Source of the DNA: a virus
Lineage: Duplodnaviria > Caudoviricetes
Length of the DNA stretch: 64,000 nucleotides
Virus record (IMG/VR): IMGVR_UViG_3300035675_000001
Strand: one strand, 5' to 3'
Shown here: one piece after another, positions 1-13,744 of the stretch
Numbering within the stretch: the stretch's first letter is position 1
How the letters are laid out: each line of letters opens with the position of its first letter
Notes under the pieces: model-generated
Database searches by the model: none
Seen by the model: the letters and a program-made list of their open reading frames with translations, nothing else
What the model was told of the DNA's origin: nothing
Translations under genes and position numbers: made by a program

Positions 1-603
1 CATGACCGGCGCTACGACCAGGCAGTCGCGCTCCTGGAGAAGTATGGCAAAGACCTGGAATGCCTGGCGTTCTCCAGCACCGGCGAACCGTTTTTCAGCC
101 GATACTACCTGCGGCTGATGCGCGAATACCTCTGCCGGGAAAAGCTGCCCATAGCCAACATCCACATTGGCACCAACGGCACCCTGCTCGATGCCAAAAT
201 GTGGGAGAGCTTGAAGTGCAAAGACATGGTTCACCTAATCTGCGTCAGCATTGACGCAGCGACGAAGGAGACCTACGAAAAGGTGCGCGGGCCAAACTGG
301 GACCGGCTGATGGACAACCTGGCCTTCATCAAATCGCTCCACGAATCCAAGGTCGTGCCCTACTTCCAGATCAGGATGGTTGTCCAGGCGCTCAACTGGC
401 GCGAGATGGAGCAGTTCGCCTACCTAGCCTCCACCTTCCTGGCCCACCCGGTTTACCAGCTCGTGTATCCCTGGGGCACGCTGACTGACGCGGACATGAT
501 CTACTACAAGGAGCATCCCGACTACGAGGAGTTCATGACCCACCTGCGGGCCTTCGACAAGAAGTTCCACTGGGTGGAGGCGTATTACCGCCAACTGCTC
601 TGA
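1..603 (+). CDS. Radical SAM protein, 5'-truncated
   Basis: Frame open from base 1; STGEPF, TNGTLL and VSIDAAT..TYEKVRG motifs typical of radical SAM/SPASM enzymes; CxxxCxxC lies outside the window. Confidence 0.75.
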   Translation, partial: HDRRYDQAVALLEKYGKDLECLAFSSTGEPFFSRYYLRLMREYLCREKLPIANIHIGTNGTLLDAKMWESLKCKDMVHLICVSIDAATKETYEKVRGPNWDRLMDNLAFIKSLHESKVVPYFQIRMVVQALNWREMEQFAYLASTFLAHPVYQLVYPWGTLTDADMIYYKEHPDYEEFMTHLRAFDKKFHWVEAYYRQLL

Positions 604-605
604 AA

Positions 606-680
606 TGGTGCGCGTGGAGAGGATCGCACTCCCAACCTCCGCCGTGTCGAGGCGTTGCTCTGCTGCTGAGCTACACGCGC
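606..680 (-). tRNA. tRNA-Val(GAC)
   Basis: Acceptor GCGCGTG/CACGCGC, A-CCA; anticodon loop TC-GAC-AC (C33); T-loop TGCGATC. Confidence 0.9.
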
Positions 681-681
681 A

Positions 682-831
682 TTAAGATTGTCGCTGCTTG
701 GCGATGATTTCGACCGAGTGAGCGATCCGATTGACCGCATCCGCAATTTTACGGATGGAGTCGTCCGTAGCCGCCCCGACGCCGAACATGACCACCAGAC
801 CCAGGAAGAAGCCTAATGTAAACTTTTTCAT
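682..831 (-). CDS. Small membrane/secreted protein (49 aa)
   Basis: Read by hand: MKKFTLGFFLGLVVMFGVGAATDDSIRKIADAVNRIAHSVEIIAKQRQS; below the ORF-track cutoff. Confidence 0.55.
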   Translation of the reverse strand: MKKFTLGFFLGLVVMFGVGAATDDSIRKIADAVNRIAHSVEIIAKQRQS

Positions 832-848
832 CCAGGATAGTTAATGCG

Positions 849-1220
849 ATGAAAGTCGCTGGTCAAGAGATCGAAGTTCAAACCGACCGCTATCATGGCG
901 GCTGGCTGAGCGTCGCCTACATGCCTGATGGCAAGAGAGTTGCCTCGGCCCCCTGGGACACCAGGGAAGCTGCCGAGAACGACGTGTATCAGCAGGTCTT
1001 GATGCGCCTGGCACCCGCGCCGACTTTCGACCCGACCAGAAGCTACGAATCGGCCATCATTCAAAGCCGAGCCGATGGTCTCCTGGAGCACTGCGGGCAC
1101 TGCCCCAACGACATCCGCAAGCGTCGGCTGGCCCGGCTGCGTAAGACCCCGCCGCCCAAAGCTTCGTTTTACCCTGGCAGCGGTGGATCAGCCGGGGTTG
1201 GAGGGACCACAAGTGCCTGA
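849..1220 (+). CDS. Hypothetical protein
   Basis: 123-aa ORF preceded by ATAGTTA; stop overlaps the next GTG start. Confidence 0.55.
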   Translation: MKVAGQEIEVQTDRYHGGWLSVAYMPDGKRVASAPWDTREAAENDVYQQVLMRLAPAPTFDPTRSYESAIIQSRADGLLEHCGHCPNDIRKRRLARLRKTPPPKASFYPGSGGSAGVGGTTSA

Positions 1221-2136
1221 GTTCGGCCTCAAATACGACTACCGGCCCTACGTCTGCATGACTTGCGGGCAGGAGAAGATGATCGGCACCAACCACACCG
1301 ACATCTGCTTTGACCACTGCCCAGGGTGCTCCTGGCGCGGCGGTATGCACCCGACCGGCGAAGTTTACCATCCCAGCCACACCCGCGCTTTTCAGTTCGC
1401 AGGACAGGAACCGGAGGACAAAATGATCGACCGTGATTTACTGGGCGAAGCCGATGAGCTTCTGCCGCGCCCGCCCTCGATGAAGGTGCGCGATCTCCAG
1501 GACAAAGCTACCCAGTCGCGGGCAAAACTTGCCCAGCTCCGCGCCCAAATGGGCAACCGGCCCGATGTGCTGGCCAAGATCGACGACCTCGACAAGAAGA
1601 TGAACCAGCGCGACAGCCTGTTGCGCCAGCTCAAATACAGCCTGGAGTTCCGCGAGGCCGCAGCCCGGCACAATGTTCCTCTCGATCAGGTCCGCGCCTT
1701 GATCCCGCACCCCAGCACACCTTTCGGCCAAACGCCACGATCCGTGGTCGGCCTGGTCACCAACGACGGTCGCCGGGTCATGTTCACCCGGCCCATTGAC
1801 GTTCACCGGCCAGATGTCGTTGAGCACTGGGAAGACCTGGATGAAGGCTGGCGCAAATGGGCGGCTGGAGCGGCAATGGGAGCTGCGCTCCTGGGCGCTG
1901 GCATCCACAGCCAGCACCACGCCAAAGCTCCGCAGCAGGCCAGCTACGTCGATCCCGACGCCGAGCGCGAAGCCAAAGCCGAGCAGCGGTTGCGGAACAA
2001 AGCGGACCAGCTCAAGAGCGCCGGAAAAACCAGCGGCACTTTCAAGCAGGGCAAGCTCCAGCCTGACACATTCCAGCCGGGCACACTGGGCGGCTCGAAC
2101 ACCGCCGAGCGCCGTGTCAGCCACACGGACTTCTGA
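1213..2136 (+). CDS. Hypothetical protein with N-terminal CxxC zinc-binding motifs and a hydrophobic segment
   Basis: GTG start inside ORF 1075-2136; CMTC...CPGC; EDLDEGWRKWAAGAAMGAALLG. Confidence 0.6.
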   Translation: MPEFGLKYDYRPYVCMTCGQEKMIGTNHTDICFDHCPGCSWRGGMHPTGEVYHPSHTRAFQFAGQEPEDKMIDRDLLGEADELLPRPPSMKVRDLQDKATQSRAKLAQLRAQMGNRPDVLAKIDDLDKKMNQRDSLLRQLKYSLEFREAAARHNVPLDQVRALIPHPSTPFGQTPRSVVGLVTNDGRRVMFTRPIDVHRPDVVEHWEDLDEGWRKWAAGAAMGAALLGAGIHSQHHAKAPQQASYVDPDAEREAKAEQRLRNKADQLKSAGKTSGTFKQGKLQPDTFQPGTLGGSNTAERRVSHTDF

Positions 2137-2208
2137 TGGAGCCGAAGGCCGGTGCTGCCCCGGCCTGGTCAAGTTTACAAAACTCGTCCCCTCGCTGGAG
2201 GCTTCGGC
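2137..2208 (-). tRNA. tRNA-Thr(TGT)
   Basis: Acceptor GCCGAAG/CTTCGGC, T-CCA; anticodon CGAGT-TTTGTAA-ACTTG; T-loop GGCAGCA; C8. Confidence 0.85.
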
Positions 2209-2250
2209 GTCAATACCTTAGTGCATAGGACGTGTTCCCCGTGGAACAAA

Positions 2251-2326
2251 TGGTGGGCTGGGCGGGCCACGATCCCGCAACCTGACGGTTAAGAGCCGCC
2301 TGCTCTGCCGATTGAGCTACCAACCC
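2251..2326 (-). tRNA. tRNA-Lys(CTT)
   Basis: Cloverleaf with CCA; loop CT-CTT-AA; T-loop ATCGTGG. Confidence 0.9.
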
Positions 2327-2332
2327 GTAAAA

Positions 2333-2407
2333 TGGTCGCTGCGCCCGGACTCGCACCGGGAACCGTCACCTTATGAGGGTGCCGCGCTACTATTGCGCCA
2401 CGCAGCG
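2333..2407 (-). tRNA. tRNA-Met or Ile2 (CAT)
   Basis: C1-G72 paired, so not initiator; loop CT-CAT-AA; T-loop TGCGAGT. Confidence 0.85.
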
Positions 2408-2411
2408 TTCG

Positions 2412-2466
2412 CCTGGCCTTGGTTCGCACCGTGTCTTCGGCACCACCATGACAAGACAGGGCCAGG
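2412..2466 (-). ncRNA. Candidate small structured RNA between tRNAs
   Basis: CCTGGCC/GGCCAGG closing stem, TGTCTT/AAGACA inner stem, GGT-GCGA-ACC GNRA hairpin. Confidence 0.4.
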
Positions 2467-2473
2467 TTTGAAG

Positions 2474-2549
2474 TGGAGCCAACCCAGGGACTTGCACCCT
2501 GCATCACCCGCTTACCAAGCGGGGTCACCGCTGTCTGTGAGTGGTTGGC
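2474..2549 (-). tRNA. tRNA-Thr(GGT)
   Basis: Acceptor GCCAACC/GGTTGGC, T-CCA; loop TT-GGT-AA; T-loop TGCAAGT; A8. Confidence 0.9.
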
Positions 2550-2552
2550 AAA

Positions 2553-2628
2553 TGGAGCGAACGACCGGCAATGATCCGGCAACCTGATGCTTGGAAGGCA
2601 CCTGCTCTGCCTATTGAGCTACGTTCGC
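2553..2628 (-). tRNA. tRNA-Gly(TCC)
   Basis: T73-CCA; loop CT-TCC-AA; T-loop ATCATTG. Confidence 0.9.
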
Positions 2629-2951
2629 GTTGGAAAACCTTGTTCGGCGCGGCGGACCTTTTTGGCGGCTTCACGAGCCTCCCGGCCCGCTTCCCATTCT
2701 TCCGGGGAAGGCACTGGATCAAGAATCTCGTCGCCGGGATGAAGCATCCCGTGGGACCAGCCGCCCTGGCCATCATCGTAGCCGACCGAGTGGTGGATAC
2801 CCCTGCCGATCTCGCGGAGATCGTAATAGCCGTTCCAGTGAGCCTTGACGACCCCCTGCGGCGTGCGGACGCGGATGACTTTTCCGCCGCCTGGGTAATC
2901 TTCCTCACCCTCCAGGAGCGTCTTTACGATGAATTGTGCCACGCTAATCAT
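2619..2951 (-). CDS. Hypothetical protein with N-terminal LLE-acidic motif
   Basis: Start re-assigned to MISVAQFIVKTLLEGEED because the longer ORF overlaps tRNAs; GTAGTTA 8 nt upstream. Confidence 0.65.
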   Translation of the reverse strand: MISVAQFIVKTLLEGEEDYPGGGKVIRVRTPQGVVKAHWNGYYDLREIGRGIHHSVGYDDGQGGWSHGMLHPGDEILDPVPSPEEWEAGREAREAAKKVRRAEQGFPTRT

Positions 2952-2985
2952 GTCGGCATAACTACGCGGGGACTTGAGGACAGAA

Positions 2986-3060
2986 TGGAGGCCAGCCGGG
3001 GAATCGCACCCCGCGCCACGGTTTTGCAGACCGGTCAGTTCGCTTGCTCTGTCGCTGGCC
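2986..3060 (-). tRNA. tRNA-Cys(GCA)
   Basis: T73-CCA; loop CT-GCA-AA; T-loop TGCGATT; G8. Confidence 0.9.
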
Positions 3061-3061
3061 C

Positions 3062-3137
3062 TGGAGCCTCCGGCTGGAATTGCACCAGCCACGTCCTGTT
3101 TACGAAACAGGCGCACCGCTGTCTGTGCTTCGGAGGC
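3062..3137 (-). tRNA. tRNA-Thr(CGT)
   Basis: Loop TT-CGT-AA; T-loop TGCAATT; A8. Confidence 0.9.
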
Positions 3138-3140
3138 AAA

Positions 3141-3215
3141 TGGTGGGAACGGCTGGTGCTGCCCCAGCGACCTTGAGTTTGTAGGACTCCTGCTCTACTG
3201 CTGAGCTACGCTCCC
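3141..3215 (-). tRNA. tRNA-Val(TAC)
   Basis: Loop CC-TAC-AA (C33); T-loop GGCAGCA. Confidence 0.9.
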
Positions 3216-3235
3216 GAAATCGGTTCTAAAAAGGC

Positions 3236-3964
3236 ATGAGTGAATTGTTTCGAGCACGGGTCGAGAAGTTTTTCCTGGAGTATGTCCTCCACGACAGCCC
3301 GCACAGCCGCAATCCGTTTGTCACGACGCACTGCCAACGCTACGTCCACTCCATGCTGTTCGCCGAGGCCGAGCTGAAAGAGGCCAAGGTGATCCTGGAA
3401 GTGGGCGCACCGGGCGCTTTCACCGAGGGCCTGCGGTCCATGCTGCCGGACCTGGTGATCGAAAACTCAAGCGCCGATCTCCGCACCGTCTTTACGGACA
3501 AGCGAGACTACTACGACTTCATCCTGAACATGGAGGTCATCGAGCACATGAAAGACCTGGACGTGCCGGAGGACTGGTTCCATCGGGATGCCTACGTCGG
3601 CGACGGCTTGAAAAATTTTGTAAACACTTGCTACCAGTGCTTGAAACCTGGCGGAAAGATGTTCTTGACGACCCCCAATCTCAGTTCCATCGGAACTCTT
3701 TGGAGGGTAATGAACTGTGGAAACCCATTTTCCTACGAGCTGCACATCCGCGAACTTTCAGTCAGTGATCTCTGGAAGGCGCTCACCGATGCCGGATTCA
3801 AGATCGACCGCTATACAACCATGCGTTGTTACGAGCAAAACCAGGTTCCACCGGACAAAGAGGCCCGAATCATGGGCTTCTTGCGCGAGATGAATCTGCC
3901 CACGGACAACCGCGATGAAGTCCAGTTCGTCTTGGCGTCCAAGCCTGTAGTTAAACCGCAATGA
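3236..3964 (+). CDS. Class I SAM-dependent methyltransferase
   Basis: ILEVGAPG motif I, MEVIEHM, LKPGGKMFLTTPN. Confidence 0.85.
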   Translation: MSELFRARVEKFFLEYVLHDSPHSRNPFVTTHCQRYVHSMLFAEAELKEAKVILEVGAPGAFTEGLRSMLPDLVIENSSADLRTVFTDKRDYYDFILNMEVIEHMKDLDVPEDWFHRDAYVGDGLKNFVNTCYQCLKPGGKMFLTTPNLSSIGTLWRVMNCGNPFSYELHIRELSVSDLWKALTDAGFKIDRYTTMRCYEQNQVPPDKEARIMGFLREMNLPTDNRDEVQFVLASKPVVKPQ

Positions 3965-4101
3965 CGACCTGGCTACTCATAGCGGTAGTTGCCGGACTGG
4001 CTTTCGCTGCCGGATGGTGGTGGAGGGGTCGCCGGAAACGCAGACAAATTCGGGTCGAGTTCGACATCGGCCCAGTAACATTGAAACAAAACTATGGTTA
4101 A
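3961..4101 (+). CDS. Small membrane protein (46 aa)
   Basis: MTTWLLIAVVAGLAFAAGWWWRGRRKRR...; ATGA overlap with upstream stop; GTAGTTA upstream. Confidence 0.5.
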   Translation: MTTWLLIAVVAGLAFAAGWWWRGRRKRRQIRVEFDIGPVTLKQNYG

Positions 4102-4630
4102 GATCACAACCGAACAACAAGTCCGTTTGCACGCGGCCTTCCTGACGGCAGCGGGTTCTCCCGCTCCGATTGAGGGAACGCCGGAATGGAGTGCCGCTCC
4201 TGCGGGAGTGGTCAACCTCATCGTGGACCCTGATGGCCGCGCAGCCCTTTGCCAGAGCGTAGCTGCTGGCACCGCCCAGGTGTCCGTCTCGGCTGACGCC
4301 GACCTTGGCACCGGGGTCCGAACAATCACCGGCACCATCGGGATCGAAGTCAGCGAAGCCTCTGCCGAAGCAGTGGAGATCACCGCCGATACGCCTGAGT
4401 TCAAGACCGTGACGCTTACCGTCACCGTTGAAATGCTCCCGGACGGCACGGCCAAGGTCACCGGCCACGGCAACCCCGACACGCTGTATCACGTCGAAGC
4501 CGCCGATGATGTCGCTGGCCCGTATGCTGAGATCGGGACCACCCTGTCGGATTCGACCGGCGTCGCTATCTTCATCGACCCGGATGCCGCTTCGCACACC
4601 ACTCGGTTTTATCGTCTTCGTTGGCCCTAA
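4094..4630 (+). CDS. Ig-like protein with Verrucomicrobia-type C-terminal domain
   Basis: Beta-rich N-terminal half; ends YHVEAADDVAGPY...FIDPDAASHTTRFYRLRWP. Confidence 0.65.
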   Translation: MVKITTEQQVRLHAAFLTAAGSPAPIEGTPEWSAAPAGVVNLIVDPDGRAALCQSVAAGTAQVSVSADADLGTGVRTITGTIGIEVSEASAEAVEITADTPEFKTVTLTVTVEMLPDGTAKVTGHGNPDTLYHVEAADDVAGPYAEIGTTLSDSTGVAIFIDPDAASHTTRFYRLRWP

Positions 4631-4701
4631 AGGCTGACGTTGTTGGTGGTCAGTCCAGTCGTTGACGGCCCGGAGCTGTTCTCCGGGCCGTTTCTTTGCA
4701 A

Positions 4702-4833
4702 TGGTGGGGACGATAATCCTTCAAGTTCGGCCCTATTCAGGCAAGGATTTTCGGAGGTTTATTTGAGACGGGATTTGAACCCGCGACCTCCCGCTTTTCA
4801 GGCGGGCGCTCTACCAGGCTGAGCTACGTCCCC
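4702..4833 (-). tRNA. tRNA-Phe(GAA) with a 55-nt insert between the T arm and the acceptor 3' strand
   Basis: 5' GGGGACG pairs with distal CGTCCCC-A-CCA; normal D arm; CCCGC-CTGAAAA-GCGGG; T-loop TTCAAAT; insert at 4713-4767. Confidence 0.8.
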
Positions 4834-4853
4834 ATAAATCTGTTCTACGCAAT

Positions 4854-5585
4854 ATGCTGACAATCGGAATCTTGAACTGCAAACGGCAGAATAACGTCGT
4901 GGCCCTGGTCAACCGTTATTCGGCCATGCCCATCGTCTCTCGCGTCACCGTGTGGAGCAGTCCGCCCGGCGACTTCCGCGTGAGCGACAACCCCAAACTC
5001 CTGACCGCGACCTGCGCCCCGGACTGGGGCATGTATGCCCGGTTCCAGTCGGTCCTCAACGCGCCCACGGAGTGGGTCATGACGGTCGATGACGACCTGT
5101 TCATCCCGGAGGAGTCGATCAAGGTCATGCTCGACGCCCGGATGAAGGACAAGGACAAGAGGATCAGCGGCATGTTCGGCAGACGGCCTTCCCAAACCCA
5201 GGGCTTTGCCGTGTTCAAAGACCTGGTGGACGAGGACTGCGAAATCGTCGTGGCCCGCGTCATGGTGTTTCACGTCAGCCTGATCGCCCGCTTCTTCGAT
5301 GTCGTGCGCGACCCGCGCTGGGAGGAGCTTTACGCCAAAGGCCGGGCCAATGGCTGGACAAAGACCACCAACATCGAGGACATCATCATGAGCTACACCG
5401 CGATGCGCGACACCGGCAGGCTCAACCAGATTCACAAGGTGCCCCACCAGGAGTTCGACGCGCCGGAGCCGATCTGGAAGATGCCGAACTTCTTCCCGTA
5501 TCGCCAAGCGGGCCTGACGTTCACCCAGCAGTTTTTCAACAACTGGTCCCACAGCGATCAGCCGACCGGCTGGACCGGCTGTTAA
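4854..5585 (+). CDS. GT-A fold glycosyltransferase (GT64/EXTL-like)
   Basis: VMTVDDDLFI DxD motif; NIEDIIMS resembles the EXTL NCEDI motif. Confidence 0.65.
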   Translation: MLTIGILNCKRQNNVVALVNRYSAMPIVSRVTVWSSPPGDFRVSDNPKLLTATCAPDWGMYARFQSVLNAPTEWVMTVDDDLFIPEESIKVMLDARMKDKDKRISGMFGRRPSQTQGFAVFKDLVDEDCEIVVARVMVFHVSLIARFFDVVRDPRWEELYAKGRANGWTKTTNIEDIIMSYTAMRDTGRLNQIHKVPHQEFDAPEPIWKMPNFFPYRQAGLTFTQQFFNNWSHSDQPTGWTGC

Positions 5586-5586
5586 A

Positions 5587-5661
5587 TGGTGCTCGCGGTT
5601 GGAATCCCACCAACGGCCTCAGCCTTCGCAGGGCTGCGCTCTATAACTGAGCTACGCGAGC
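5587..5661 (-). tRNA. tRNA-Arg(GCG)
   Basis: Loop CT-GCG-AA; T-loop TGGGATT. Confidence 0.9.
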
Positions 5662-5665
5662 AAAA

Positions 5666-5741
5666 TGGTGCCCCAAACTGGAATCTCACCAGTGGCCTTC
5701 GCCTTCGGAGGGCGACGCTCTATAGACTGAGCTACTGGGGC
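5666..5741 (-). tRNA. tRNA-Arg(CCG)
   Basis: Loop CT-CCG-AA; T-loop TGAGATT. Confidence 0.9.
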
Positions 5742-5742
5742 A

Positions 5743-5821
5743 TGGCGTTCCTGGCGGGACTCGCACCCGCTAGAGATTCGGCTTGAAAGGCCGACCGCTG
5801 GACGACTTTGCGCTCAGGAAC
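5743..5821 (-). tRNA. tRNA-Glu(TTC)
   Basis: Loop CT-TTC-AA; G73; T-loop TGCGAGT; A8. Confidence 0.88.
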
Positions 5822-5826
5822 AAAAA

Positions 5827-5903
5827 TGGTATCCCCGGTGGGATTCGCACCCACGATCTTCTGGTTGAGAACCAGGCGTGTTGGGCTGCTACACTACGGG
5901 GAC
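5827..5903 (-). tRNA. tRNA-Glu(CTC)
   Basis: Loop TT-CTC-AA; T-loop TGCGAAT. Confidence 0.9.
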
Positions 5904-5907
5904 AATC

Positions 5908-5977
5908 CACGGACAAGGAGAGCGACGTGGGAGGTTTCTCATTAGTGGTAAGATAACCCACATCAATTCGGCCCGTG
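5908..5977 (-). ncRNA. Minimal Y RNA-like RNA (Ro60-binding stem)
   Basis: CACGGGCCGA...GTGGGTTATCT...CCCAC...CCTTGTCCGTG; bulged-C helix and GUUAUCU as in Y RNAs. Confidence 0.7.
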
Positions 5978-5981
5978 AAAG

Positions 5982-6056
5982 TGGTCCCTGGGATCGGTAA
6001 CGCACCGATGTCTCCGGTTTTTCAGACCGGCGCTAATCTATCTCAGCTACCCAGGG
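5982..6056 (-). tRNA. tRNA-Phe(GAA), uninterrupted copy
   Basis: Loop CT-GAA-AA; T-loop TGCGTTA. Confidence 0.9.
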
Positions 6057-6057
6057 T

Positions 6058-6243
6058 TCAAGGCTCCAGCGTTTCCGCGAGCAGGAGGGCTGCTGCGAGA
6101 CGACGCGCCTCCCTGCGCGTCAGATGATGATAGACGGTCTCGCCTGCGGATGAGGACAAACTGACCTTGATGAAATTGGATCGTCGGGTCTTGGAAACCT
6201 CCACCCGATACTGCTTCGCTTTGCTGACAAGACGGTAGCTCAC
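6058..6243 (-). CDS. Hypothetical protein
   Basis: 61-aa ORF; ATGA overlap with upstream gene. Confidence 0.5.
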   Translation of the reverse strand: MSYRLVSKAKQYRVEVSKTRRSNFIKVSLSSSAGETVYHHLTRREARRLAAALLLAETLEP

Positions 6244-6647
6244 TCAGGGAACCGGGGGAGTTTGTGATCGTCAGCCTGCTTCTCGTAATACTCCAGCTTG
6301 GACCGAATATCGTTCAGCACTTTGGCCAGCTCGGCAGCAAAGCTCACTGGCTCCGGTTCCACTTTGGCGTGAATGATGACCTTCAAATGATCGGCTGCTT
6401 TCTTCTGCGCCCGCATCTCGATGCGGGTTGCGCCCGCCGCCCAGGCGAAGAACAGCGAGTTCAAAAACGCCAGGATGTAATGTGCCGAGCTATGGGACGC
6501 CGCGACCTCGGTCAGACGATAGATGGTGATGACCACGATGCCCAGGAACACCAGCACCCAAATTCTCCGCTTCACGATACGGTAGAGCGTCGTCCACACG
6601 TAGAGGACGTAGAGCTGCAACAGGATCGCTATGACCAAAAATGCCAT
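6240..6647 (-). CDS. Membrane protein (3 TM segments plus basic/coiled tail)
   Basis: Three hydrophobic stretches; GTATTTA upstream. Confidence 0.6.
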   Translation of the reverse strand: MAFLVIAILLQLYVLYVWTTLYRIVKRRIWVLVFLGIVVITIYRLTEVAASHSSAHYILAFLNSLFFAWAAGATRIEMRAQKKAADHLKVIIHAKVEPEPVSFAAELAKVLNDIRSKLEYYEKQADDHKLPRFPE

Positions 6648-6673
6648 GCCGGTCTAAATACGCAGGCTGAAAT

Positions 6674-6750
6674 TGGTAGCCGCAGTTGGAGTTGCACCAA
6701 CGACCTGACGCTTATCAAGCGCCTGCTCTGACTAGCTGAGCTACGCGGCC
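6674..6750 (-). tRNA. tRNA-Ile(GAT)
   Basis: Loop TT-GAT-AA; T-loop TGCAACT. Confidence 0.9.
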
Positions 6751-6753
6751 ACA

Positions 6754-6841
6754 TGGCGGCTGGTGCAGGATTTCCACCTGCGCGGGTTTTACCCCGTCCA
6801 CGGTTTTCGAGACCGGAACCTTGGTGCTCGGTCAACCAGCC
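6754..6841 (-). tRNA. tRNA-Ser(CGA)
   Basis: Long variable arm, G73; loop CT-CGA-AA; T-loop TGGAAAT. Confidence 0.9.
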
Positions 6842-6851
6842 GGAAAGATTT

Positions 6852-6975
6852 GACGGACAAGGGGAACCAAGGAGTTTTTGCTACCTCCGAGGTCACGGCA
6901 CATGGAGCCGTGAGTGAGAGTCGAACTCACATCGCTTCATTTACAGTGAAGATAATCCTCAGTAATCGGCCCGTC
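6852..6975 (-). ncRNA. YrlA-type Y RNA enclosing a circularly permuted tRNA-Tyr(GTA)-like domain
   Basis: GACGGGCCGA/TTGTCCGTC Ro stem; ACTGAGGA/TCCTTGGT; CTTCA-CTGTAAA-TGAAG; GTGAG-TTCGACT-CTCAC; TCACGGC-TCCATGT-GCCGTGA. Confidence 0.8.
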
Positions 6976-6979
6976 AAAA

Positions 6980-7067
6980 TGGCGGATGGTGCAGGATTTC
7001 CACCTGCGCTGGTGTTACCCAGTCCTCCGGCTTCCAACCGGGAACCTTGGTGCTCGGTCAACCATCC
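6980..7067 (-). tRNA. tRNA-Ser(GGA)
   Basis: Long variable arm, G73; loop TT-GGA-AG; T-loop TGGAAAT. Confidence 0.9.
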
Positions 7068-7084
7068 AAAAAGTTTACAAAAAG

Positions 7085-7173
7085 TGGCGGAGGGCACAGG
7101 AGTCCAACCTGTTCAGGTTTCACCCTGGCGTCGGTTTTCAAGACCGCCCCGTTCGACGTTCCGGCAGCCCTCC
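7085..7173 (-). tRNA. tRNA-Ser(TGA)
   Basis: Long variable arm, G73; loop CT-TGA-AA; T-loop TTGGACT. Confidence 0.9.
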
Positions 7174-7194
7174 GCAAGAAGGTAGTTAGCGCAG

Positions 7195-7641
7195 ATGCCG
7201 GAAAAGACATTAGCCTATCACCTGCTGCAAAAGTTTGAAGCAGACCGGGAGAAGATCGAGCGATACTCGTCCATAGCGGAACACTGCCCGCTCCCCGCGT
7301 TTATCGCTGGATCAGACGGCATTTCCATCCTCTACATCAACCCGGCCTACCGGGAATTGACCGGACGCAACATCGAAGAACTCCAGGACGGCAAGTGGGT
7401 TACGTCGGTTATTCACCCGGACGATCAGGCGTCAGTTATTGATGCCTGGAAATTGTTTACAAAAACTGTCCAGCGACAGGCTCATCATCACCGCTATGTT
7501 CACGTCGATGGCCGGGTCACGGATGCGGTGACTGTAGTGGACCGGGTTGAAGGCAACGGCTACGTTGGCTTCATCATTCCCCACTGCGGCAAAGAGGACT
7601 GCCCGATGCAACAGTTGGTCCCACTTGGTCACCACACGTAA
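7195..7641 (+). CDS. Stand-alone PAS-domain protein
   Basis: ILYINPAYRELTGRNIEELQDGKWVTSVIHPDD is a typical PAS_3/PAS_4 signature; no output domain. Confidence 0.8.
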   Translation: MPEKTLAYHLLQKFEADREKIERYSSIAEHCPLPAFIAGSDGISILYINPAYRELTGRNIEELQDGKWVTSVIHPDDQASVIDAWKLFTKTVQRQAHHHRYVHVDGRVTDAVTVVDRVEGNGYVGFIIPHCGKEDCPMQQLVPLGHHT

Positions 7642-7642
7642 A

Positions 7643-7718
7643 TGGTGCTCGCGGCAGGAATCTCACCTGCGACCAGCCGCTTAGGAAACGACCGCTCTGA
7701 TAACTGAGCTACGCGAGC
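7643..7718 (-). tRNA. tRNA-Arg(CCT)
   Basis: Loop TT-CCT-AA; T-loop TGAGATT. Confidence 0.9.
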
Positions 7719-7719
7719 G

Positions 7720-7796
7720 TGGCACCCCTGCCAGGATTCCCACCTGGATCAGACCGCTTAGAAGACGGTCGCTCTAATACATTGAGCTACAGGGGC
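7720..7796 (-). tRNA. tRNA-Arg(TCT)
   Basis: Loop CT-TCT-AA; T-loop TGGGAAT. Confidence 0.9.
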
Positions 7797-7808
7797 TTAC
7801 AACTAAAA

Positions 7809-7884
7809 TGGCTGCCAAGACTGGGGACGATCCAGTAACCGCCCGGTTAACAGCCGGGTGCTCTACCAGTTGAGCTACTTGGCA
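7809..7884 (-). tRNA. tRNA-Asn(GTT)
   Basis: T1-A72, G73; loop CT-GTT-AA; T-loop ATCGTCC. Confidence 0.9.
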
Positions 7885-7890
7885 ATGAAA

Positions 7891-8106
7891 TCAGGCCGGA
7901 ATCGGCGTCGAGCCAGGGATGAACGGGGCTTTGGTGCCGCCGCCTCCACTGGGGTTGGCCGGATTCGGAATGAGCGTGGACTCGGCAACGTAATCGGCAG
8001 CGGTCCCGCCGCCGCCATCAGCCTTGGCCGAGTTTGGAACGAGGGTCGCGCCTGGAGGCGTCGTATCGCCCGTCCGAACCGGCGCTGGAATGATCGTCAT
8101 GTCCAT
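7891..8106 (-). CDS. Small Pro/Gly-rich protein with internal duplication
   Basis: TLVPNSAKADGGGGT / TLIPNPANPSGGGGT; GTAGTTA 6 nt upstream. Confidence 0.55.
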   Translation of the reverse strand: MDMTIIPAPVRTGDTTPPGATLVPNSAKADGGGGTAADYVAESTLIPNPANPSGGGGTKAPFIPGSTPIPA

Positions 8107-8122
8107 CGCTCTTAACTACAAA

Positions 8123-8199
8123 TGGTCAGCGCGGAGGGCTTCGATCCCTCGGCCTCCTGGCCCCGAACCAGGCGCTCTGCCAAGCTGAGCTACGCGCTG
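8123..8199 (-). tRNA. tRNA-Pro(CGG)
   Basis: C1-G72, A73, G37; T-loop ATCGAAG. Confidence 0.9.
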
Positions 8200-8206
8200 A
8201 TGAAAA

Positions 8207-8282
8207 TGGTCGGGCTGGCCGGGTATGATCCGGCGACCTTCTGGCCCCCAGCCAGACGCGCTGCCAACTGCGCTACAGCCCG
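8207..8282 (-). tRNA. tRNA-Pro(GGG)
   Basis: C1-G72; loop CT-GGG-GG; T-loop ATCATAC. Confidence 0.9.
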
Positions 8283-8286
8283 AAAA

Positions 8287-8361
8287 TGGTCAGGGCGGGG
8301 AGTTTCGCAATCCCGGCCTCCTGGTCCCAAGCCAGGCGCTCTGCTTCTGAGCTACGCCCTG
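8287..8361 (-). tRNA. tRNA-Pro(TGG)
   Basis: C1-G72; loop CT-TGG-GA; T-loop TGCGAAA with a T53.C61 mismatch. Confidence 0.85.
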
Positions 8362-8387
8362 ATCGCCGTGTAGTTACGGTGAAAGTT

Positions 8388-10454
8388 ATGGAAATCACAT
8401 ACGTTCCAGACCCGTCCAAAGCGGATGGCAAACCGGTTGTTGCCGAGGTTGTTGCCCTGGGCACGACTGTTGTTCAATTCGCCACGCCACAACAGGTTTA
8501 CGTGACGGGCGGGACGCTCGCCACGAACGTCCAGTTCACCGGCTCAATTTCGACCGACATCGGCAACGTCAAAATCGAAGACCAGAACGGAAACTACGCC
8601 GAAATGCCAGCGGCGAGTGACGCCAAGACTGGAGCCAACAAAGCCCTACTCGTTCAGCACGTTGACGAAACCGGAACTCCGCTCCGCCAATCGACGCAGG
8701 TCAGCATCATGCAGAACCAGGGGACGCTCGCAACAAGCGCCCTCCAGGCTACCGGAATCGCACTGGCCTCGGTCATCCTGAACAACCAGGGCACCCAGGC
8801 CACAGCAGCTCTCCAGCAAGCAGGCAACGGCGCTCTGAGCGTAATTGTAAACAACCAGGGCACCCAGGCCACGGTCGCAGCTCAGGATAGCCAGACAGCG
8901 ATCCTGGCCGTGATGATGAACAATCAGGGCACGCTGACTCCGGCAACGGACTCGACGACCCTGACGGCGGTCATGAACAACCAGGGGACGCAGGCGACCT
9001 CGGCCAAGCAAGATGCCACGAACAACCTGCTGACGGTCATCATGAACGCGCAGGGGACGCAGGCGACCAGCGAGGTCGCTGAAAGCATTACGTTCTCGGC
9101 CATCCTGAACAACCAAGGAACCCTGGCGACCAGCGCCCAACAGACCGCCGCACAGGCGACGCTGACCACGGTCATGAACAGCCAGGGGACACAGAGCACG
9201 GCGCTGCTCTCGCCCATCCTGAATGCTTTCGGAACTCTCGCTACGGCGGCAGCTCAAGCCAACGGAAATACAGCTCTCCAAAATCTGCTGACGCCCATCC
9301 TGAACGCCCAGGGCACGCAGAGCACTGCCCTGCTGTTGCCCATCCTGAACAACCAGGGAACTCAGGCGACCAGCGCCAACCAGGAGACCCAAATCACGGC
9401 GCTGAACACGCTGATCGACACCCTGCGGTCGGTCGATACGGTTGGGACCAACCTCGAAGTGACGCTGTTCAATGGCGTTTACGCAGTCGGACCCAGTGTG
9501 GCTGCCAACGTCAACGGCTACACCCGGCACACCGTCCAGCACGTCATCATGAACGGCAGCGTGGCCGCGCACATCGAGACCAGCCTTGACGGCACGACCT
9601 GGAATACCGAAGCGGTCGATACGGCTTCAAATCTTCAACGGCTCACGGGAGCCTGCAAATACATCCGCGCCGTTTACATGGGCGGAGCGGGCACGCTCAG
9701 CACCTTCCTGAACTCGGCAGCCGGAAACGGAGGCGGAGCGCCCAACGGCGCAGGCCAAGCCGAGCTTTGCATCGTCGGCACCGTTGCCAGCACCCTGGGG
9801 TCAGCCGTGGCTTTCGAGACGGGAGGGGCCAACAGCTTAGGCTTCCACTACGAGCCGCCTGCCGGTTCGACTTCGATTTTTGAAGGTTCGTGGGACGGCA
9901 GCCATTGGGTTGACATAACGCTGCGCCAAATGGGAGCGCACGGCTACACAAGCATCACCGATGACACCCACCAGGATTGGGTCGGTTCATGCGCGACATG
10001 GCGCTATTTTCGCCTGCGAATCACCCAGGGCGGCACAGGTGTTGGAGTTATCAGAGGCAGGTTCAGCTATGCTCCCAGCACGATTGAAGGCGTCGAAAAC
10101 CAGGCGATGCCCCACCGCATCGGCGCATCATCGCAATCAAAGAGCTTTTCCTTTACTGGCGTCACAAGCAACGGGACCATTTGGGCACCCACTACATCTT
10201 ACCACCGGCTCTACATCACGGACTTGTTCTTCACGGTCGATGCTACGACTACTGTCATCTTCTCCGATGGCAGCAACGCAGAAGGCAAACTCGTCTTCAA
10301 GGGCAAATTCAAACCCGCGTCTGGCGAAAGCTCCTATGTCCCGGCTGCTTTTTCACTCCCGCACGTATTCACCGGACCCAACCGGGCGCTGATGTTCACG
10401 CAAAGCGGAGGCGCAGAAGTTGACGGCGTGGTTCACGGCTACGAAGCAGAATAA
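8388..10454 (+). CDS. Repeat-rich fibre-like (probable virion) protein
   Basis: Many (N/S/A)QGT(Q/L)AT repeats followed by beta-rich C-terminal domains; start moved out of tRNA-Pro (in-frame GTG at 8379 also possible). Confidence 0.7.
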   Translation: MEITYVPDPSKADGKPVVAEVVALGTTVVQFATPQQVYVTGGTLATNVQFTGSISTDIGNVKIEDQNGNYAEMPAASDAKTGANKALLVQHVDETGTPLRQSTQVSIMQNQGTLATSALQATGIALASVILNNQGTQATAALQQAGNGALSVIVNNQGTQATVAAQDSQTAILAVMMNNQGTLTPATDSTTLTAVMNNQGTQATSAKQDATNNLLTVIMNAQGTQATSEVAESITFSAILNNQGTLATSAQQTAAQATLTTVMNSQGTQSTALLSPILNAFGTLATAAAQANGNTALQNLLTPILNAQGTQSTALLLPILNNQGTQATSANQETQITALNTLIDTLRSVDTVGTNLEVTLFNGVYAVGPSVAANVNGYTRHTVQHVIMNGSVAAHIETSLDGTTWNTEAVDTASNLQRLTGACKYIRAVYMGGAGTLSTFLNSAAGNGGGAPNGAGQAELCIVGTVASTLGSAVAFETGGANSLGFHYEPPAGSTSIFEGSWDGSHWVDITLRQMGAHGYTSITDDTHQDWVGSCATWRYFRLRITQGGTGVGVIRGRFSYAPSTIEGVENQAMPHRIGASSQSKSFSFTGVTSNGTIWAPTTSYHRLYITDLFFTVDATTTVIFSDGSNAEGKLVFKGKFKPASGESSYVPAAFSLPHVFTGPNRALMFTQSGGAEVDGVVHGYEAE

Positions 10455-10458
10455 TTTT

Positions 10459-12417
10459 ATGAGCCTACTCGACATCAATCAGACTCAGGTCGCAGCAGTC
10501 ATGGCCCCGGTTATCAATAACCAGGGGACACAGGCGACGGAGCAGACGCTCATCACCGTCATGAACAGTCAGGGCACGCAGGCAACTGCTGCCCTCCAGG
10601 CCAACAGCAACGCTCTCCTGACCACCATCATGAACAACCAGGGGACGCTCGCCGATTACGACGACGCGACTCTCCAGGCGGTCATGAACAACCAGGGGAC
10701 GTTGGCCACGAGCAGCAAACAGGACGCTCAAACTGCCATCCTGGGTGCGATGCTGAACAACCAGGGAACACTGACTCCTGTAACTGGTGGAGCCACAGAA
10801 ATCACTTTGGTCCGACTTGCTAATGACCAAGGCACGTTGGCCACGAGTGCGAATCAAGCCGCGAGCAATGCCTTGTTAACGGTCGTAATGAATGACCAGG
10901 GCACATTGGCGACCAGCTCCTATCAGGCGGTCCAGCTCGAACTCCTGGGCTTGATTCTGAACAGCCAGGGAACTCAAAACACGTCCAGCCTGGCGACCAG
11001 CGCCAACCAGGCGCAGGCCAACAGCTCCCTCACAGTCATTCAGAACAACCAAGGAACGCAGGCCACGGCATCGAACCAAAGCACTGAAATCAGCCTGCTC
11101 AGCCTGATCCTGAACGCCCAGGGGACTCAAGGCGAAGGGCTGAACGCACTCTCACAACAGCAAGCGGACACGGTAACGACTTACGGACCAACCGGAACTC
11201 TAGCCTCAGCGCGAGTGGCCACGCTGATGACGACTGATCCGAACTCGGTAAGCGTTGACGCATTTGGTCGGCTGCGCGTCAGCAACGCGGACTACCGGTT
11301 TGACGGCCAGCTTGTTTACCAGGTCAACGCTGACCTATGGGACTCCGCCTGGAACAGCACTGGCACGGTGACCTATGACCGCAAGAACCGAATGGCTCAG
11401 CTCACTTGCGCGGCTAACGGCACCAGCGTCATGCAGAGCCACTATCACGTCCCCTACACGCCCGGACGCGGCCAGCTCGCTTTCGTCACGTTTGCCGGAA
11501 CGGCTGCGCCAGCCGAAAACACCTACCACCGGGTAGGCTACTTCGACGAGACAAACGGTATTTTCCTGGAGCGCACCAGCGCGGGAGCAAGCTTGACACT
11601 CAAAAGCTCAACCGATGCGGGGTCCGAGACAGTTTTACAGGCAAACTGGAACATCGACAAGATGGACGGCACCGGCCCCAGCGGGTTAACGCTCGACCTG
11701 ACCAAATCTCAAATCCTGTTTATCCAGCTCCAGGCGCTCTACATCGGTCGTGTAATCGTCGGCTTCGACATCGACGGCGTTGCCTGGCCGGTCCATCAGT
11801 TCACGCACGCCAACAAGTTCGTCAAGCCCTACATTGGCAACGCGAGCTTGCCGGTGCGCTACGAAGTGGGTTCAACGGGCGTCAATACCGCCCAGCTTAA
11901 TCCCGTCTGCGCCTCCGTCATCAGCGAAGGCGGCGGGCCGCTGATCGACATTCCGGCCCGCACATTCACCGCAGGCAACGGTGCAACACCCATCAGCGTA
12001 AACGCCCGGAGACCCGTGCTTTCAATCAGGCCCAAAGCGCAGTTTAACCAAAACCAGAACGAAGGCATTGTTCTGCCGTCTGACCTGTCGATCCGAAATT
12101 CGACTGCGGACATCTACGTTGAAGTCATCCGCAACGCCGTGCTCACGGGAGCATCCTGGACAAGCGTGGATGCGGTCAACAGCGTTTGTGAATATGATGT
12201 CGCGGCAACTGCCGTCAGCGGAGGCCAAACGGTTTTCTCAGGCTACAGCAACGTCTCGTCAGGGCTATCAACAAGCATCAAGGACAACCTGCTCAGCCGC
12301 CTGACCATCGTCTATTCAGAACTTCTTCAAACAGCGGACACGCTCACCATCGTCTGCACATCTCTCGGCGGTGCTGCTTCAACTGTCGCCGCGCTTAACT
12401 GGAAAGAAATTCGTTGA
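10459..12417 (+). CDS. Repeat-rich fibre-like protein, paralog of the upstream gene in its N-terminal half
   Basis: NNQGT(Q/L)AT repeats, then VSVDAFGRLRVS and a beta-rich C-terminal domain of a kind seen in phage virion proteins. Confidence 0.7.
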   Translation: MSLLDINQTQVAAVMAPVINNQGTQATEQTLITVMNSQGTQATAALQANSNALLTTIMNNQGTLADYDDATLQAVMNNQGTLATSSKQDAQTAILGAMLNNQGTLTPVTGGATEITLVRLANDQGTLATSANQAASNALLTVVMNDQGTLATSSYQAVQLELLGLILNSQGTQNTSSLATSANQAQANSSLTVIQNNQGTQATASNQSTEISLLSLILNAQGTQGEGLNALSQQQADTVTTYGPTGTLASARVATLMTTDPNSVSVDAFGRLRVSNADYRFDGQLVYQVNADLWDSAWNSTGTVTYDRKNRMAQLTCAANGTSVMQSHYHVPYTPGRGQLAFVTFAGTAAPAENTYHRVGYFDETNGIFLERTSAGASLTLKSSTDAGSETVLQANWNIDKMDGTGPSGLTLDLTKSQILFIQLQALYIGRVIVGFDIDGVAWPVHQFTHANKFVKPYIGNASLPVRYEVGSTGVNTAQLNPVCASVISEGGGPLIDIPARTFTAGNGATPISVNARRPVLSIRPKAQFNQNQNEGIVLPSDLSIRNSTADIYVEVIRNAVLTGASWTSVDAVNSVCEYDVAATAVSGGQTVFSGYSNVSSGLSTSIKDNLLSRLTIVYSELLQTADTLTIVCTSLGGAASTVAALNWKEIR

Positions 12418-12502
12418 CGTAAGCCAGTCACGCCGGTCGCTGGCATAACCAACGACCGGCATGGCAGGGGCGTGTTGCTGCTCTGCTTCATCAGCAGGAC
12501 AA

Positions 12503-12579
12503 TGGCGGGCACGACCGGACTCGCACCGGCTGACTTCGCCGTGACAGGGCGCTGATTCGACTCCTTCATCTCCGTGCCC
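12503..12579 (-). tRNA. tRNA-Asp(GTC)
   Basis: G73; loop CT-GTC-AC; T-loop TGCGAGT; G8. Confidence 0.9.
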
Positions 12580-12585
12580 GTAAAA

Positions 12586-12673
12586 TGGTGGGAGGCGCTG
12601 GTTACGCTCCAGCCGCCACTACCCGTGATGTTGAAGGCACCGGTTTTACAGACCGGCCACGGGACCGCCTCCC
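12586..12673 (-). tRNA. tRNA-Tyr(GTA)-like RNA lacking a D arm
   Basis: Acceptor GGGAGGC/GCCTCCC, A-CCA; CCGGT-CTGTAAA-ACCGG; only 10 nt between acceptor and anticodon stems; T-loop AGCGTAA. Confidence 0.75.
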
Positions 12674-12675
12674 AT

Positions 12676-12764
12676 TTACCCAGGTCCAAACCACTGTGGC
12701 TCTGACCCCGTTACTTCCGCTGTGGCGCGTAGGGGCCTTCCTCCACTCTTTCTGGACTGGGCAA
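12676..12764 (-). ncRNA. Candidate rod-like structured RNA
   Basis: TTGCCCAG/CTGGGTAA, TCCAGA/TTTGGA, GTGG/CCAC, GGCCCC/GGGGTC nested stems. Confidence 0.5.
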
Positions 12765-12775
12765 GTAGCTAAAGC

Positions 12776-13297
12776 ATGAAATTGATACCGGTTCTCATGG
12801 CGTGTTTGGTTCTTTCAGGCTGTATGATCGTCAACGTGAAAGAACGGGGCTTTCCGCCCGAACACCAAATTGTAAACTTTGATCGGGTGACCAGCGACCT
12901 CTACCGGGGCGCTCAACCGACCATCGCCAGCCTCGATTACCTCAAGTCGTTGGGGATCAAAAGCGTCGTCTGCCTGCGAGAACCTTCTGACATTCTGCCG
13001 GGCGAACCAATATCGGTCTCGGCGCTCGGCCTGCGCTTCGAGAACCTGCCGATGGACGGCGTGACGGCTCCCAGCGAAGCGGACATAGACAAGATGCTGG
13101 ACGTGATCGACGCGCTGCCCAAGCCGGTCTTCATCCACTGCCAGTTCGGCTGCGACCGCACCGGGACCGTGATCGCCTGCTGGCGCATCAAGCATGGCTG
13201 GGACAACGACGCAGCCTACCGGGAAGCCAAGCAATACGGCATCTCGCCGCTGCTCCCGGCGCTTCATCATCTCATCAAGACCTACAAGAAAAAGTAA
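12776..13297 (+). CDS. Cys-based protein tyrosine/dual-specificity phosphatase, lipoprotein
   Basis: HCQFGCDRTG (CX5R), LYRGAQP; lipobox LVLSGC. Confidence 0.85.
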   Translation: MKLIPVLMACLVLSGCMIVNVKERGFPPEHQIVNFDRVTSDLYRGAQPTIASLDYLKSLGIKSVVCLREPSDILPGEPISVSALGLRFENLPMDGVTAPSEADIDKMLDVIDALPKPVFIHCQFGCDRTGTVIACWRIKHGWDNDAAYREAKQYGISPLLPALHHLIKTYKKK

Positions 13298-13385
13298 CGG
13301 GCAAGGGTTGGCGTCGGAGATGCCTGGTTGCCCAGGCGGTTTCCATACCAATGATAGAAGATAACCGACATCCATTCGGCCCGTT
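13296..13385 (-). ncRNA. Y RNA-like RNA (Ro60-binding stem)
   Basis: AACGGGCCGA...GTCGGTTATCT...CCGAC...CCTTGCCCGTT; inner hairpins TTCTAT/ATGGAA and GCCTGG-GCAA-CCAGGC. Confidence 0.75.
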
Positions 13386-13387
13386 GA

Positions 13388-13490
13388 ATCACCACCGGTA
13401 TTGCAACCCGCACCGCACATCAGCACTTCTTCGGCCTCGACGGCTGTGCTTTCGCTGGTCATGGGAGTCGAACCCATTGTTCACGGTGAT
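13388..13490 (-). ncRNA. tRNA-mimic RNA with a 5'-proximal canonical T arm (YrlA-like order)
   Basis: ATCACC/GGTGAT closing stem; ATGGG-TTCGACT-CCCAT; further hairpins; no anticodon arm or CCA end. Confidence 0.6.
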
Positions 13491-13498
13491 GAAAATTA

Positions 13499-13571
13499 TG
13501 GCACGGAGTGTGGGTGCTGCCCCCACCAGGACTGGTTTTGGAGACCGGTCTGCACGGCTGGTGCCCTCCGT
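13499..13571 (-). tRNA. tRNA-Trp(CCA), atypical compact fold
   Basis: G73-CCA; loop CT-CCA-AA; D arm GCAC-CAGCC-GTGC; extended anticodon stem; T-loop GGCAGCA. Confidence 0.8.
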
Positions 13572-13572
13572 A

Positions 13573-13666: not shown

Positions 13667-13668
13667 AT

Positions 13669-13744
13669 TGGTGGAAGCGCCGGGACTCGCACCCGGAACA
13701 TCGACGATGCCATCGTCGCGCTCTACTGATTGAGCTACGCCCCC
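13669..13744 (-). tRNA. tRNA-Ala(GGC)
   Basis: G3.T70, A32-T38; T-loop TGCGAGT. Confidence 0.9.

Follow-up and report, generated by a model that had tools for sequence, protein, structure and literature searches.

The locus considered here raises a simple question: is an RNA that joins a CCA-ended tRNA-Phe to a hairpin of the Ro60-binding type a tRNA, a Y RNA, an interrupted tRNA or the scar of a recombination event? Ro60/Y-RNA particles are found from bacteria to humans, and human Ro60 is a major autoantigen. The locus lies in a 64-kb stretch of DNA that was analysed as a whole (hereafter, the window). The window belongs to a large wetland/soil phage of ~59% GC and carries genes for a family A DNA polymerase, an NAD ligase, a DnaB-type helicase and a baseplate J protein, together with ~30 tRNA genes on the minus strand between positions 600 and 15430. 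The initial annotation had described a complete, CCA-ended tRNA-Phe in which the 3' strand of the acceptor stem is displaced by 55 nt, and every detail of that description is borne out by the sequence (Table 1).

Table 1. Coordinates of the chimeric RNA, its parts and its homologues, and of associated genes and RNAs (positions without a prefix refer to the window)
Feature	Coordinates	Strand	Remarks
Chimeric RNA, whole	4702..4833	(-)	132 nt; tRNA-Phe body plus Ro-type hairpin, encoded CCA end
Acceptor stem, 5' strand	4827..4833	(-)	GGGGACG; 7/7 pairing with 4712..4706
D arm	4808..4824	(-)	GCUC/GAGC, GG in loop; Rfam tRNA match; 100% paired
Anticodon arm	4790..4806	(-)	Loop CUGAAAA; anticodon GAA at 4799..4797
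T arm	4768..4784	(-)	GCGGG-UUCAAAU-CCCGU, canonical UUCAAAU loop; Rfam tRNA match; alignment
Insert	4767..4713	(-)	55 nt, between T arm and acceptor 3' strand
Linker 3' of T arm	4745..4767	(-)	Invariant CCUCC (4757..4753) and upper-stem 5' strand of the Y module
Ro-type helix, first strand	4739..4744	(-)	UUGCCU; counterpart of free Y RNA 3' end
Loop closing Ro-type helix	4734..4738	(-)	GAAUA here; GAAA in G001; GUGUA in L248 and L396
Ro-type helix, second strand	4727..4733	(-)	GGGCCGA, bulged C; counterpart of free Y RNA 5' end
Internal-loop strand, upper-stem 3' strand and linker	4713..4726	(-)	Upper-stem strand AGGAU; conserved UUAU linker
Acceptor stem, 3' strand	4706..4712	(-)	CGUCCCC; 55 nt away from T arm
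Discriminator and CCA	4702..4705	(-)	A, then encoded CCA
GC-rich hairpin	4666..4690	(.)	11 nt past CCA
Ordinary phage tRNA-Phe(GAA)	5982..6056	(-)	Phage-type T loop UGCGUUA
Free Y-like RNA Ya	6852..6975	(-)	Ro helix from RNA ends encloses anticodon-like arm, T arm (UUCGACU) and closed acceptor
Free Y-like RNA Yb	5908..5977	(-)	Directly 3' of ordinary tRNA-Phe
Free Y-like RNA Yc	13296..13385	(-)	
G001 homologue of chimera	L001:3173-3301		238-kb IMG/VR contig; polymerase 74% identical
L248 homologue of chimera	L248:8650-8780		
L396 homologue of chimera	L396:4586-4716		Identical copy in L397
Ro60 gene	L400:12621-14324		567 aa; TROVE (162 bits) and vWA_Ro60 (178 bits)

The Rfam tRNA model matches model positions 7-64 only (4767-4827, 52 bits) and, therefore, all but the acceptor stem is contiguous. 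The nucleotides immediately 3' of the T arm are unable to pair with the acceptor 5' strand, whereas the distal strand pairs with it at all seven positions. The 7-bp acceptor stem and the D, anticodon (GAA, with U33 and A37) and T arms of an elongator tRNA-Phe are all present, with AGGUC read between the anticodon and T arms; the departure from an elongator is that the T stem does not run on into the acceptor 3' strand, positions 65 and 66 being held apart. The GC-rich hairpin that follows the gene probably serves as a terminator for both the chimera gene and the convergent plus-strand gene at 4094-4630, and it is kept, with changes in the stem, in L001, L248 and L396.

The insert contains the arrangement CUUGCCU-GAAUA-GGGCCGA-N7-GGAUUAUC, which occurs once in the window and in none of 100 shuffles. 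In vertebrate Y RNAs, a bulged-C helix formed by GGNCCGA and CUUGNC is followed by an upper stem and UUAUC. Within the insert, UUGCCU pairs with GGGCCGA through G-U, G-C and G-C, a bulged C, and then C-G, G-U and A-U, which reads as the arrangement of the conserved Y RNA helix; as in Y RNAs, an internal loop and an upper stem follow. Two features depart from that class: the strands of the Ro helix are adjacent, with only 4-5 nt of loop between them, and the RNA ends in an acceptor stem. Additionally, GCCGAA of the handle conforms to the GNCGAA/CGAA motif, by which Chen et al. and the phiLo study identified Ro-binding strands (PMC4201824, PMC12135203). The three free Y-like RNAs said to carry the same strands are real: Ya, Yb and Yc are each closed by (N)ACGGGCCGA ... 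CCUUGYCCGU(N), and the GGRUUAUC of the chimera insert is also present in them. The proposal that the insert is the Ro-type module of these free RNAs, with its strand order reversed and closed by a loop, is, thus, supported by the sequence. A search of the insert with the Rfam Y RNA and YrlA models, suggested at the same time, found that neither matched. Y_RNA (RF00019) gave no match up to E = 10 in window 1-17000, and the sole YrlA (RF02553) match in the window, at 22 bits against a gathering score of 69, is outside the chimera; on the chimera, the free Y RNAs and the 16 related loci examined, both models fall below threshold, and only the tRNA model matches.

Pattern scans and neighbour-gene walks identified at least three further homologues of the chimera, all in related uncultured phages, and the chimera in L400 is identical to the window copy. 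The window phage has no relative in INPHARED, where the only match was one of 56 nt to a tRNA-Phe, and the IMG/VR pattern scans found the layout of T arm followed by handle only in G001. The set used for alignment A3 comprises the window, G001, L248 and L396 RNAs, all from one phage clade, with pairwise identities of 73-89%. Of its 132 pair cells, 97.7% are paired, and sliding the pair partners drops this value to 39-57%; moreover, the covariation score of the alignment was matched by none of 500 shuffles. The acceptor helix, formed across the insert, is fully paired (7/7) in all four RNAs, with both-side (compensatory) changes at three of its seven pairs, and the anticodon stem has both-side changes at two of five. 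U33-GAA-A37 is invariant among the four, positions 32 and 38 are variable, and discriminator 73 is A in the window, L248 and L396 RNAs and G in that of G001. The covariation check proposed for the locus has, therefore, a divided outcome: the acceptor and anticodon stems compensate, whereas the Ro helix gives no covariation signal within the four chimeras because it is invariant. Conservation of this GGGCCGA/CUUGCC helix among homologues had itself been set beforehand as the point on which the Ro-handle reading could fail, and the helix is kept in all four. A strain variant from a soil metagenome of another study has no changes in the 132-nt RNA versus 11 in 219 flanking nucleotides (seven substitutions and four indels; hypergeometric p = 0.005). 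On account of the pairing, the covariation and the constancy of the strain variant, the chimera is evidently a conserved, structured RNA gene, and not a scar. Loose contig ends in runs X6 and X7 suggest two more chimera variants. More distant relatives reached via the 178/179-aa neighbour gene have a free Y RNA and no chimera, and in close relatives the corresponding place is either occupied by a free Y RNA or empty.

The upper stem of the handle is ambiguous, its register differing between the window and G001 RNAs and those of L248 and L396: AAUCC/GGAUU fits the former pair and fails in L396, whereas pairing of 74-79 with 115-120 is complete (6/6) in L248 and L396, and drops to 5/6 in the window and 4/6 in G001. 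Upstream of the handle, the invariant CCUCC (4753-4757) is complementary to an equally invariant GGAGG at 4788-4792, to which the last part of the anticodon stem and the variable loop contribute, and a CCUCC/GGAGG helix around the T arm is drawn in each of the minimum free energy folds, those of the window, G001 and L248 RNAs; this modelled helix could be an alternative fold, a relic of the upper stem or the product of chance.

The ordinary tRNA-Phe noted at 5982 is real, being called by ARAGORN, and the view that the chimera is dispensable for decoding also stands, as a separate tRNA-Phe is present in the window phage and its relatives, and those relatives that have no chimera retain it. The T loops set the chimera apart from the decoding tRNAs of the phage: the T loop is never UUC in the CCA-ended ordinary tRNAs of the window (UGC, AUC, UGG, UGA or UUG is found instead), and the same is true of those of L001, L248 and L396; in L400, the single exception is a tRNA-Met (L400:11034-11109), which lies upstream of the Ro60 gene and has the canonical T loop UUCAAAU. 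As both the chimera and the tRNA-like module of Ya have the canonical UUCRANY T loop, the chimera groups with the Ro-linked RNAs and looks host-like, not phage-like. Homologues of Ya are present at L001:1899-2023 and in L396, and its anticodon-like loop varies across the three phages (GUA in the window, UGA in G001 and GAA in L396). ARAGORN calls the Ya homologue of L396 (L396:3399-3477) a tRNA-Phe, and for the chimera it wrongly returns a 73-nt tRNA-Phe at 4762-4834 with a false acceptor stem; automatic annotation, therefore, hides such RNAs. Immediately after the Ya homologue in G001 lies an open-acceptor counterpart of Ya (L001:2032-2167, plus strand), which is CCA-ended and whose closed handle is flanked by the acceptor 5' strand/D region on one side and an anticodon-like arm (loop CUAAAGA) on the other.

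A GT64-like plus-strand gene (window 4854-5585) intervenes between the chimera and the upstream tRNA-Arg, as it does in L248, and so transcription of the window chimera requires either a promoter of its own or antisense read-through; a tRNA directly precedes the chimera in G001 and L396. The 30 nt upstream of the chimera are conserved between the window and L248, and a sigma-70 promoter scan around the chimera gene gave no match.

There is no TROVE gene in the 64-kb window. The ENA contig behind L398/L400, which matches window 1-6265 and 1-14630 at 99.98% identity, extends 11.6 kb beyond the left edge of the window, and it is in this extension, at about -6.4 to -8.1 kb in window coordinates, that the Ro60 gene is found, on the same strand as the tRNA/Y array and ~11 kb from the chimera. 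Its product is 71% identical to the Ro60 of G001. The chimera and the Ro60 gene are 14 kb apart in G001 and 11.7 kb apart on the L396 contig, and hence, as expected of a Y RNA, a Ro60 (TROVE plus vWA) gene shares a genome with the chimera in L400, in G001 and on the L396 contig. G001 has no RtcB, which leaves no link to an Rtc repair operon.

Loop-closed handles form a widespread family. Scans that covered metagenomes, IMG/VR and one genome per prokaryotic species gave, among the matches listed, more than 100 distinct loop-closed CUUGYC-loop-GGNCCGA-N-GGGUUAUC copies in tRNA-shaped RNAs. At the helix position that corresponds to the third G, all 104 closed-helix relatives among the matches listed are paired (C-G in 79, U-G in 21 and U-A in four); among the listed non-tRNA pattern matches, 46 of 115 are unpairable there. 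A TROVE gene is present in each of the 45 bacterial genomes checked that have such RNAs (among the matches listed), as against two of 14 control genomes, and it is often on the same contig as the RNA. Examples with an open acceptor, in which the handle replaces the anticodon loop, are L002, L045, L138, L148, L157, L202, L278 (Deinococcus lacus) and many Nostoc loci (L251-L370). The Rfam tRNA model reads these anticodon-less RNAs as tRNAs with an insert of ~60 nt, and an encoded CCA is present in 13 of 103 of them among the matches listed. The full anticodon arm kept by the chimera is lost in most closed-handle relatives among the matches listed. In the literature open to search, we found no published description of the anticodon-less closed-handle RNAs. 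On other phage or metagenome contigs, a closed Ro-type hairpin directly follows a complete tRNA on a 165-kb contig (L372:3050-3200, plus strand), and another directly precedes a complete tRNA in L135 (minus strand, near 7600); these tandems are other ways of linking the handle to tRNAs.

How does the chimera relate to the known Ro60-associated RNAs? The initial annotation had regarded it as the reverse permutation, which holds in respect of the helix that contains the RNA ends, but fails in respect of connectivity. A permutation of either YrlA or Ya would be expected to bring the handle to a site between the D arm and the anticodon arm, or to have it stand in for the latter; in the chimera, it follows the T arm and precedes the acceptor 3' strand and, because the junction differs, the chimera is not a strict circular permutation of YrlA. 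RNAs with the expected layout do exist (L001:2032-2167, L002, L045 and at least ~100 more), and the anticodon-less handle RNAs, with the module in the position of the anticodon loop, are circular permutations of YrlA in the true sense. They share with the chimera the loop-closed module and the open-acceptor tRNA frame, and differ from it in the site of the module and in that most, among the matches listed, have no encoded CCA. The remark of the initial annotation that no described example of the layout was known agrees with our own search, as we found no published account of a handle between the T arm and the acceptor in the literature open to search.

For the comparison with YrlA, an RNA bound by bacterial or phage Ro60/Rsr, we used RF02553, Chen et al. 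2014 (PMC4201824) and Wang et al. 2018 (10.1101/312249). The termini of YrlA lie in the Ro helix, and its acceptor is closed by a loop, with neither a free CCA nor an anticodon loop (10.1101/312249). In both RNAs, a bulged helix of the Ro60-binding type is joined to a tRNA-like domain in which the D and T arms are authentic and an acceptor or acceptor-like stem is present, both have a conserved UA/UUAU after the upper stem, and both are found in genomes that encode Ro60. Unlike YrlA, the chimera has a loop-closed Ro helix, an open acceptor with an encoded ACCA, a complete anticodon arm with GAA and a handle that exits after the T arm and before the acceptor strand; the Rfam model of YrlA does not recognise it. 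A further parallel is the YrlA of Mycobacterium smegmatis, for which cleavage by RNase P and addition of CCA have been shown, the RNA remaining in two pieces, and for which Chen et al. raised the possibility of aminoacylation (PMC4201824). It resembles the chimera in being a Ro60-bound RNA, as predicted here for the chimera, whose tRNA-like domain ends in a 7-bp acceptor with CCA; however, its CCA end arises by cleavage, the Ro helix holds its two pieces together and an anticodon arm is absent, whereas the chimera is a single chain, encoded in that topology, with a full tRNA-Phe. Among metazoan-type and Deinococcus Y RNAs (Yrn1/Yrn2), those of vertebrates have the bulged-C helix, upper stem and UUAUC in the same order as the chimera; unlike it, metazoan-type and Deinococcus Y RNAs have their termini in the Ro helix and no CCA-bearing acceptor stem. 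The D. radiodurans Y RNAs keep both Ro strands, and Yrn1 has an element like an anticodon arm (Chen et al., PMC4201824). tmRNA and the viral tRNA-like structures also join a CCA-ended tRNA-like module covalently to another RNA module, but they have no Ro handle, the extra domain exits at another junction and, in tmRNA, there is no anticodon arm.

Y RNAs tether Ro60 to effectors, YrlA has a tRNA-like effector domain, and a phage Ro60 binds both phage Y-like RNAs and host PNPase (PMC4201824; 10.1101/312249; PMC12135203). Against this background, we consider it probable, though by no means assured, that the chimera is a stable tRNA-shaped partner RNA of the phage Ro60, that is, a Y RNA of new layout, in which the tRNA-Phe part acts as an effector and not as a decoder. 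A partner of Ro60 is preferred to a decoder because a separate tRNA-Phe exists, and because the T loop differs from those of ordinary phage tRNAs. RNase P and 3' trimming would set the ends at G1 and the CCA, the body would fold to the L-shape of a tRNA, the extra arm would project from the T-stem/acceptor junction, and the phage Ro60, encoded 11 kb away, would dock on the bulged-C helix. The tRNA-Phe part might then show a host-like tRNA-Phe (canonical T loop, GAA and CCA) to some tRNA-Phe-binding factor, or, alternatively, act as bait or decoy, while staying tethered to Ro60 and to any protein that Ro60 recruits, for which PNPase is the candidate suggested by the literature on other Ro60 proteins. 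That the anticodon is fixed amid changes, while the Ya loop is not conserved, suggests that the tRNA-Phe identity of the chimera matters. On the opposite side, the Rfam Y_RNA and YrlA models recognise neither the insert nor the free Y RNAs, the Ro helix gives no covariation signal among the chimeras, the register of the upper stem is ambiguous and the four homologues all belong to one clade. Known Y RNAs, moreover, form the Ro helix from their termini, whereas in the chimera a loop joins its strands and a single closing pair lies beneath the conserved part.

Two alternatives retain the chimera as a functional RNA and differ on the purpose of its tRNA body. It might be a working tRNA-Phe that also carries Ro60, charged by PheRS and used by EF-Tu and the ribosome, in which case Ro60 could shield the RNA (from host tRNA nucleases, for example) or ride to translating ribosomes. 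A73 is a general PheRS identity element, and its presence in three of the four homologues, like the 7-bp acceptor and the encoded CCA, is as such a tRNA would require, but G001 has G73. The constancy of U33-GAA-A37, while the stem and positions 32 and 38 change, also fits, and it looks selected because the anticodon-like loop of Ya varies in three phages (GUA, UGA and GAA). However, the 55-nt arm leaves exactly where EF-Tu and the ribosome contact the acceptor/T-stem junction and would be awkward for both, an ordinary tRNA-Phe is already in the phage and is still found in relatives that have no chimera, and the T loop is unlike those of the phage decoding tRNAs (the one tRNA-Met of L400 excepted). 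Even with the precedent of the cut M. smegmatis YrlA, for which aminoacylation was raised as a possibility (PMC4201824), we give this reading a small but real chance. At the other extreme, the tRNA body could be a mere scaffold for the processing and stability of a minimal Y hairpin, or the RNA could be nicked in two, as M. smegmatis YrlA is, the Phe identity being incidental: RNase P and 3' trimming would define the ends, and the tRNA fold would protect the hairpin. [quoted passage not shown] A scaffold would, however, hardly need an anticodon with a fixed U33/A37 context amid changing neighbours, nor a full anticodon arm of the kind that most closed-handle relatives have lost, and it has, in our estimate, an outside chance.

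Might the locus, instead, yield no chimeric RNA of consequence? Were the insert an intervening sequence, its removal would give a normal tRNA-Phe, and the exon parts, when joined, do make a perfect 77-nt one. Nevertheless, the insert is only 55 nt long and matches no intron family in Rfam, group I included, and inspection allows no bulge-helix-bulge to be drawn at the junctions, where the 5' end of the insert cannot pair with the start of the 3' exon; the absence of an intron signature reported by the initial annotation is, in these respects, upheld. We know of no splicing system of bacteria or phages that would act at the junction of positions 65 and 66. Moreover, the insert is the most conserved part of the RNA and a Ro-type module common to free RNAs. 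A decaying fusion or pseudogene, born of recombination between a tRNA-Phe and a Y RNA gene, would be in keeping with the restriction of the chimera, among the homologues found, to one small phage clade, and with the free Y RNA, or nothing, at the same place in close relatives; against it stand four lineages that, at 73-89% identity, keep all helices with compensatory changes, a strain variant whose flanks vary and whose RNA does not, and the conserved terminator hairpin after the RNA. Splicing and decay are unlikely readings, the former very markedly so and the latter to a similarly high degree.

Returning to the chimera as a Ro60 partner, a more specific proposal, to which we attach little credence for the present, is that it is charged with phenylalanine or recognised as a tRNA-Phe by a host factor, and so would deliver the Ro60 particle onto a target. 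PheRS, EF-Tu, the ribosome at UUY codons and a tRNA-directed defence nuclease are candidate targets, and an exonuclease recruited by Ro60 would reach the same target. If correct, this would give a tRNA a protein-delivery or decoy job, and would be the first defined job of the tRNA-like domain of a Y RNA. More generally, the chimera could help to show the purpose of the tRNA-like parts of Y RNAs: the published examples are without both a CCA end and an anticodon, which makes links to translation hard to test, whereas the chimera keeps the CCA and the anticodon under visible selection, beside a recognisable Ro handle, in a phage that encodes Ro60. One RNA and one protein would serve as reagents for asking whether a Ro60-bound RNA is charged and which tRNA-binding factors it engages, and the same reagents would address whether phages turn Ro60 particles against tRNA-directed host defences.

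Immediately upstream of the phage Ro60 gene, L400:10650-12200 contains four oddly shaped tRNA-like RNAs together with the canonical tRNA-Met, a tmRNA-like gene at ~L400:11414-11840 that is not called by ARAGORN, and small Y-like RNAs, such as that at L400:12085-12170, which has a T arm. Approximately 2.2 kb downstream of the phage Ro60 is a DUF7873 gene (193 bits; L400:16557-17318 and L393:13529-14290).
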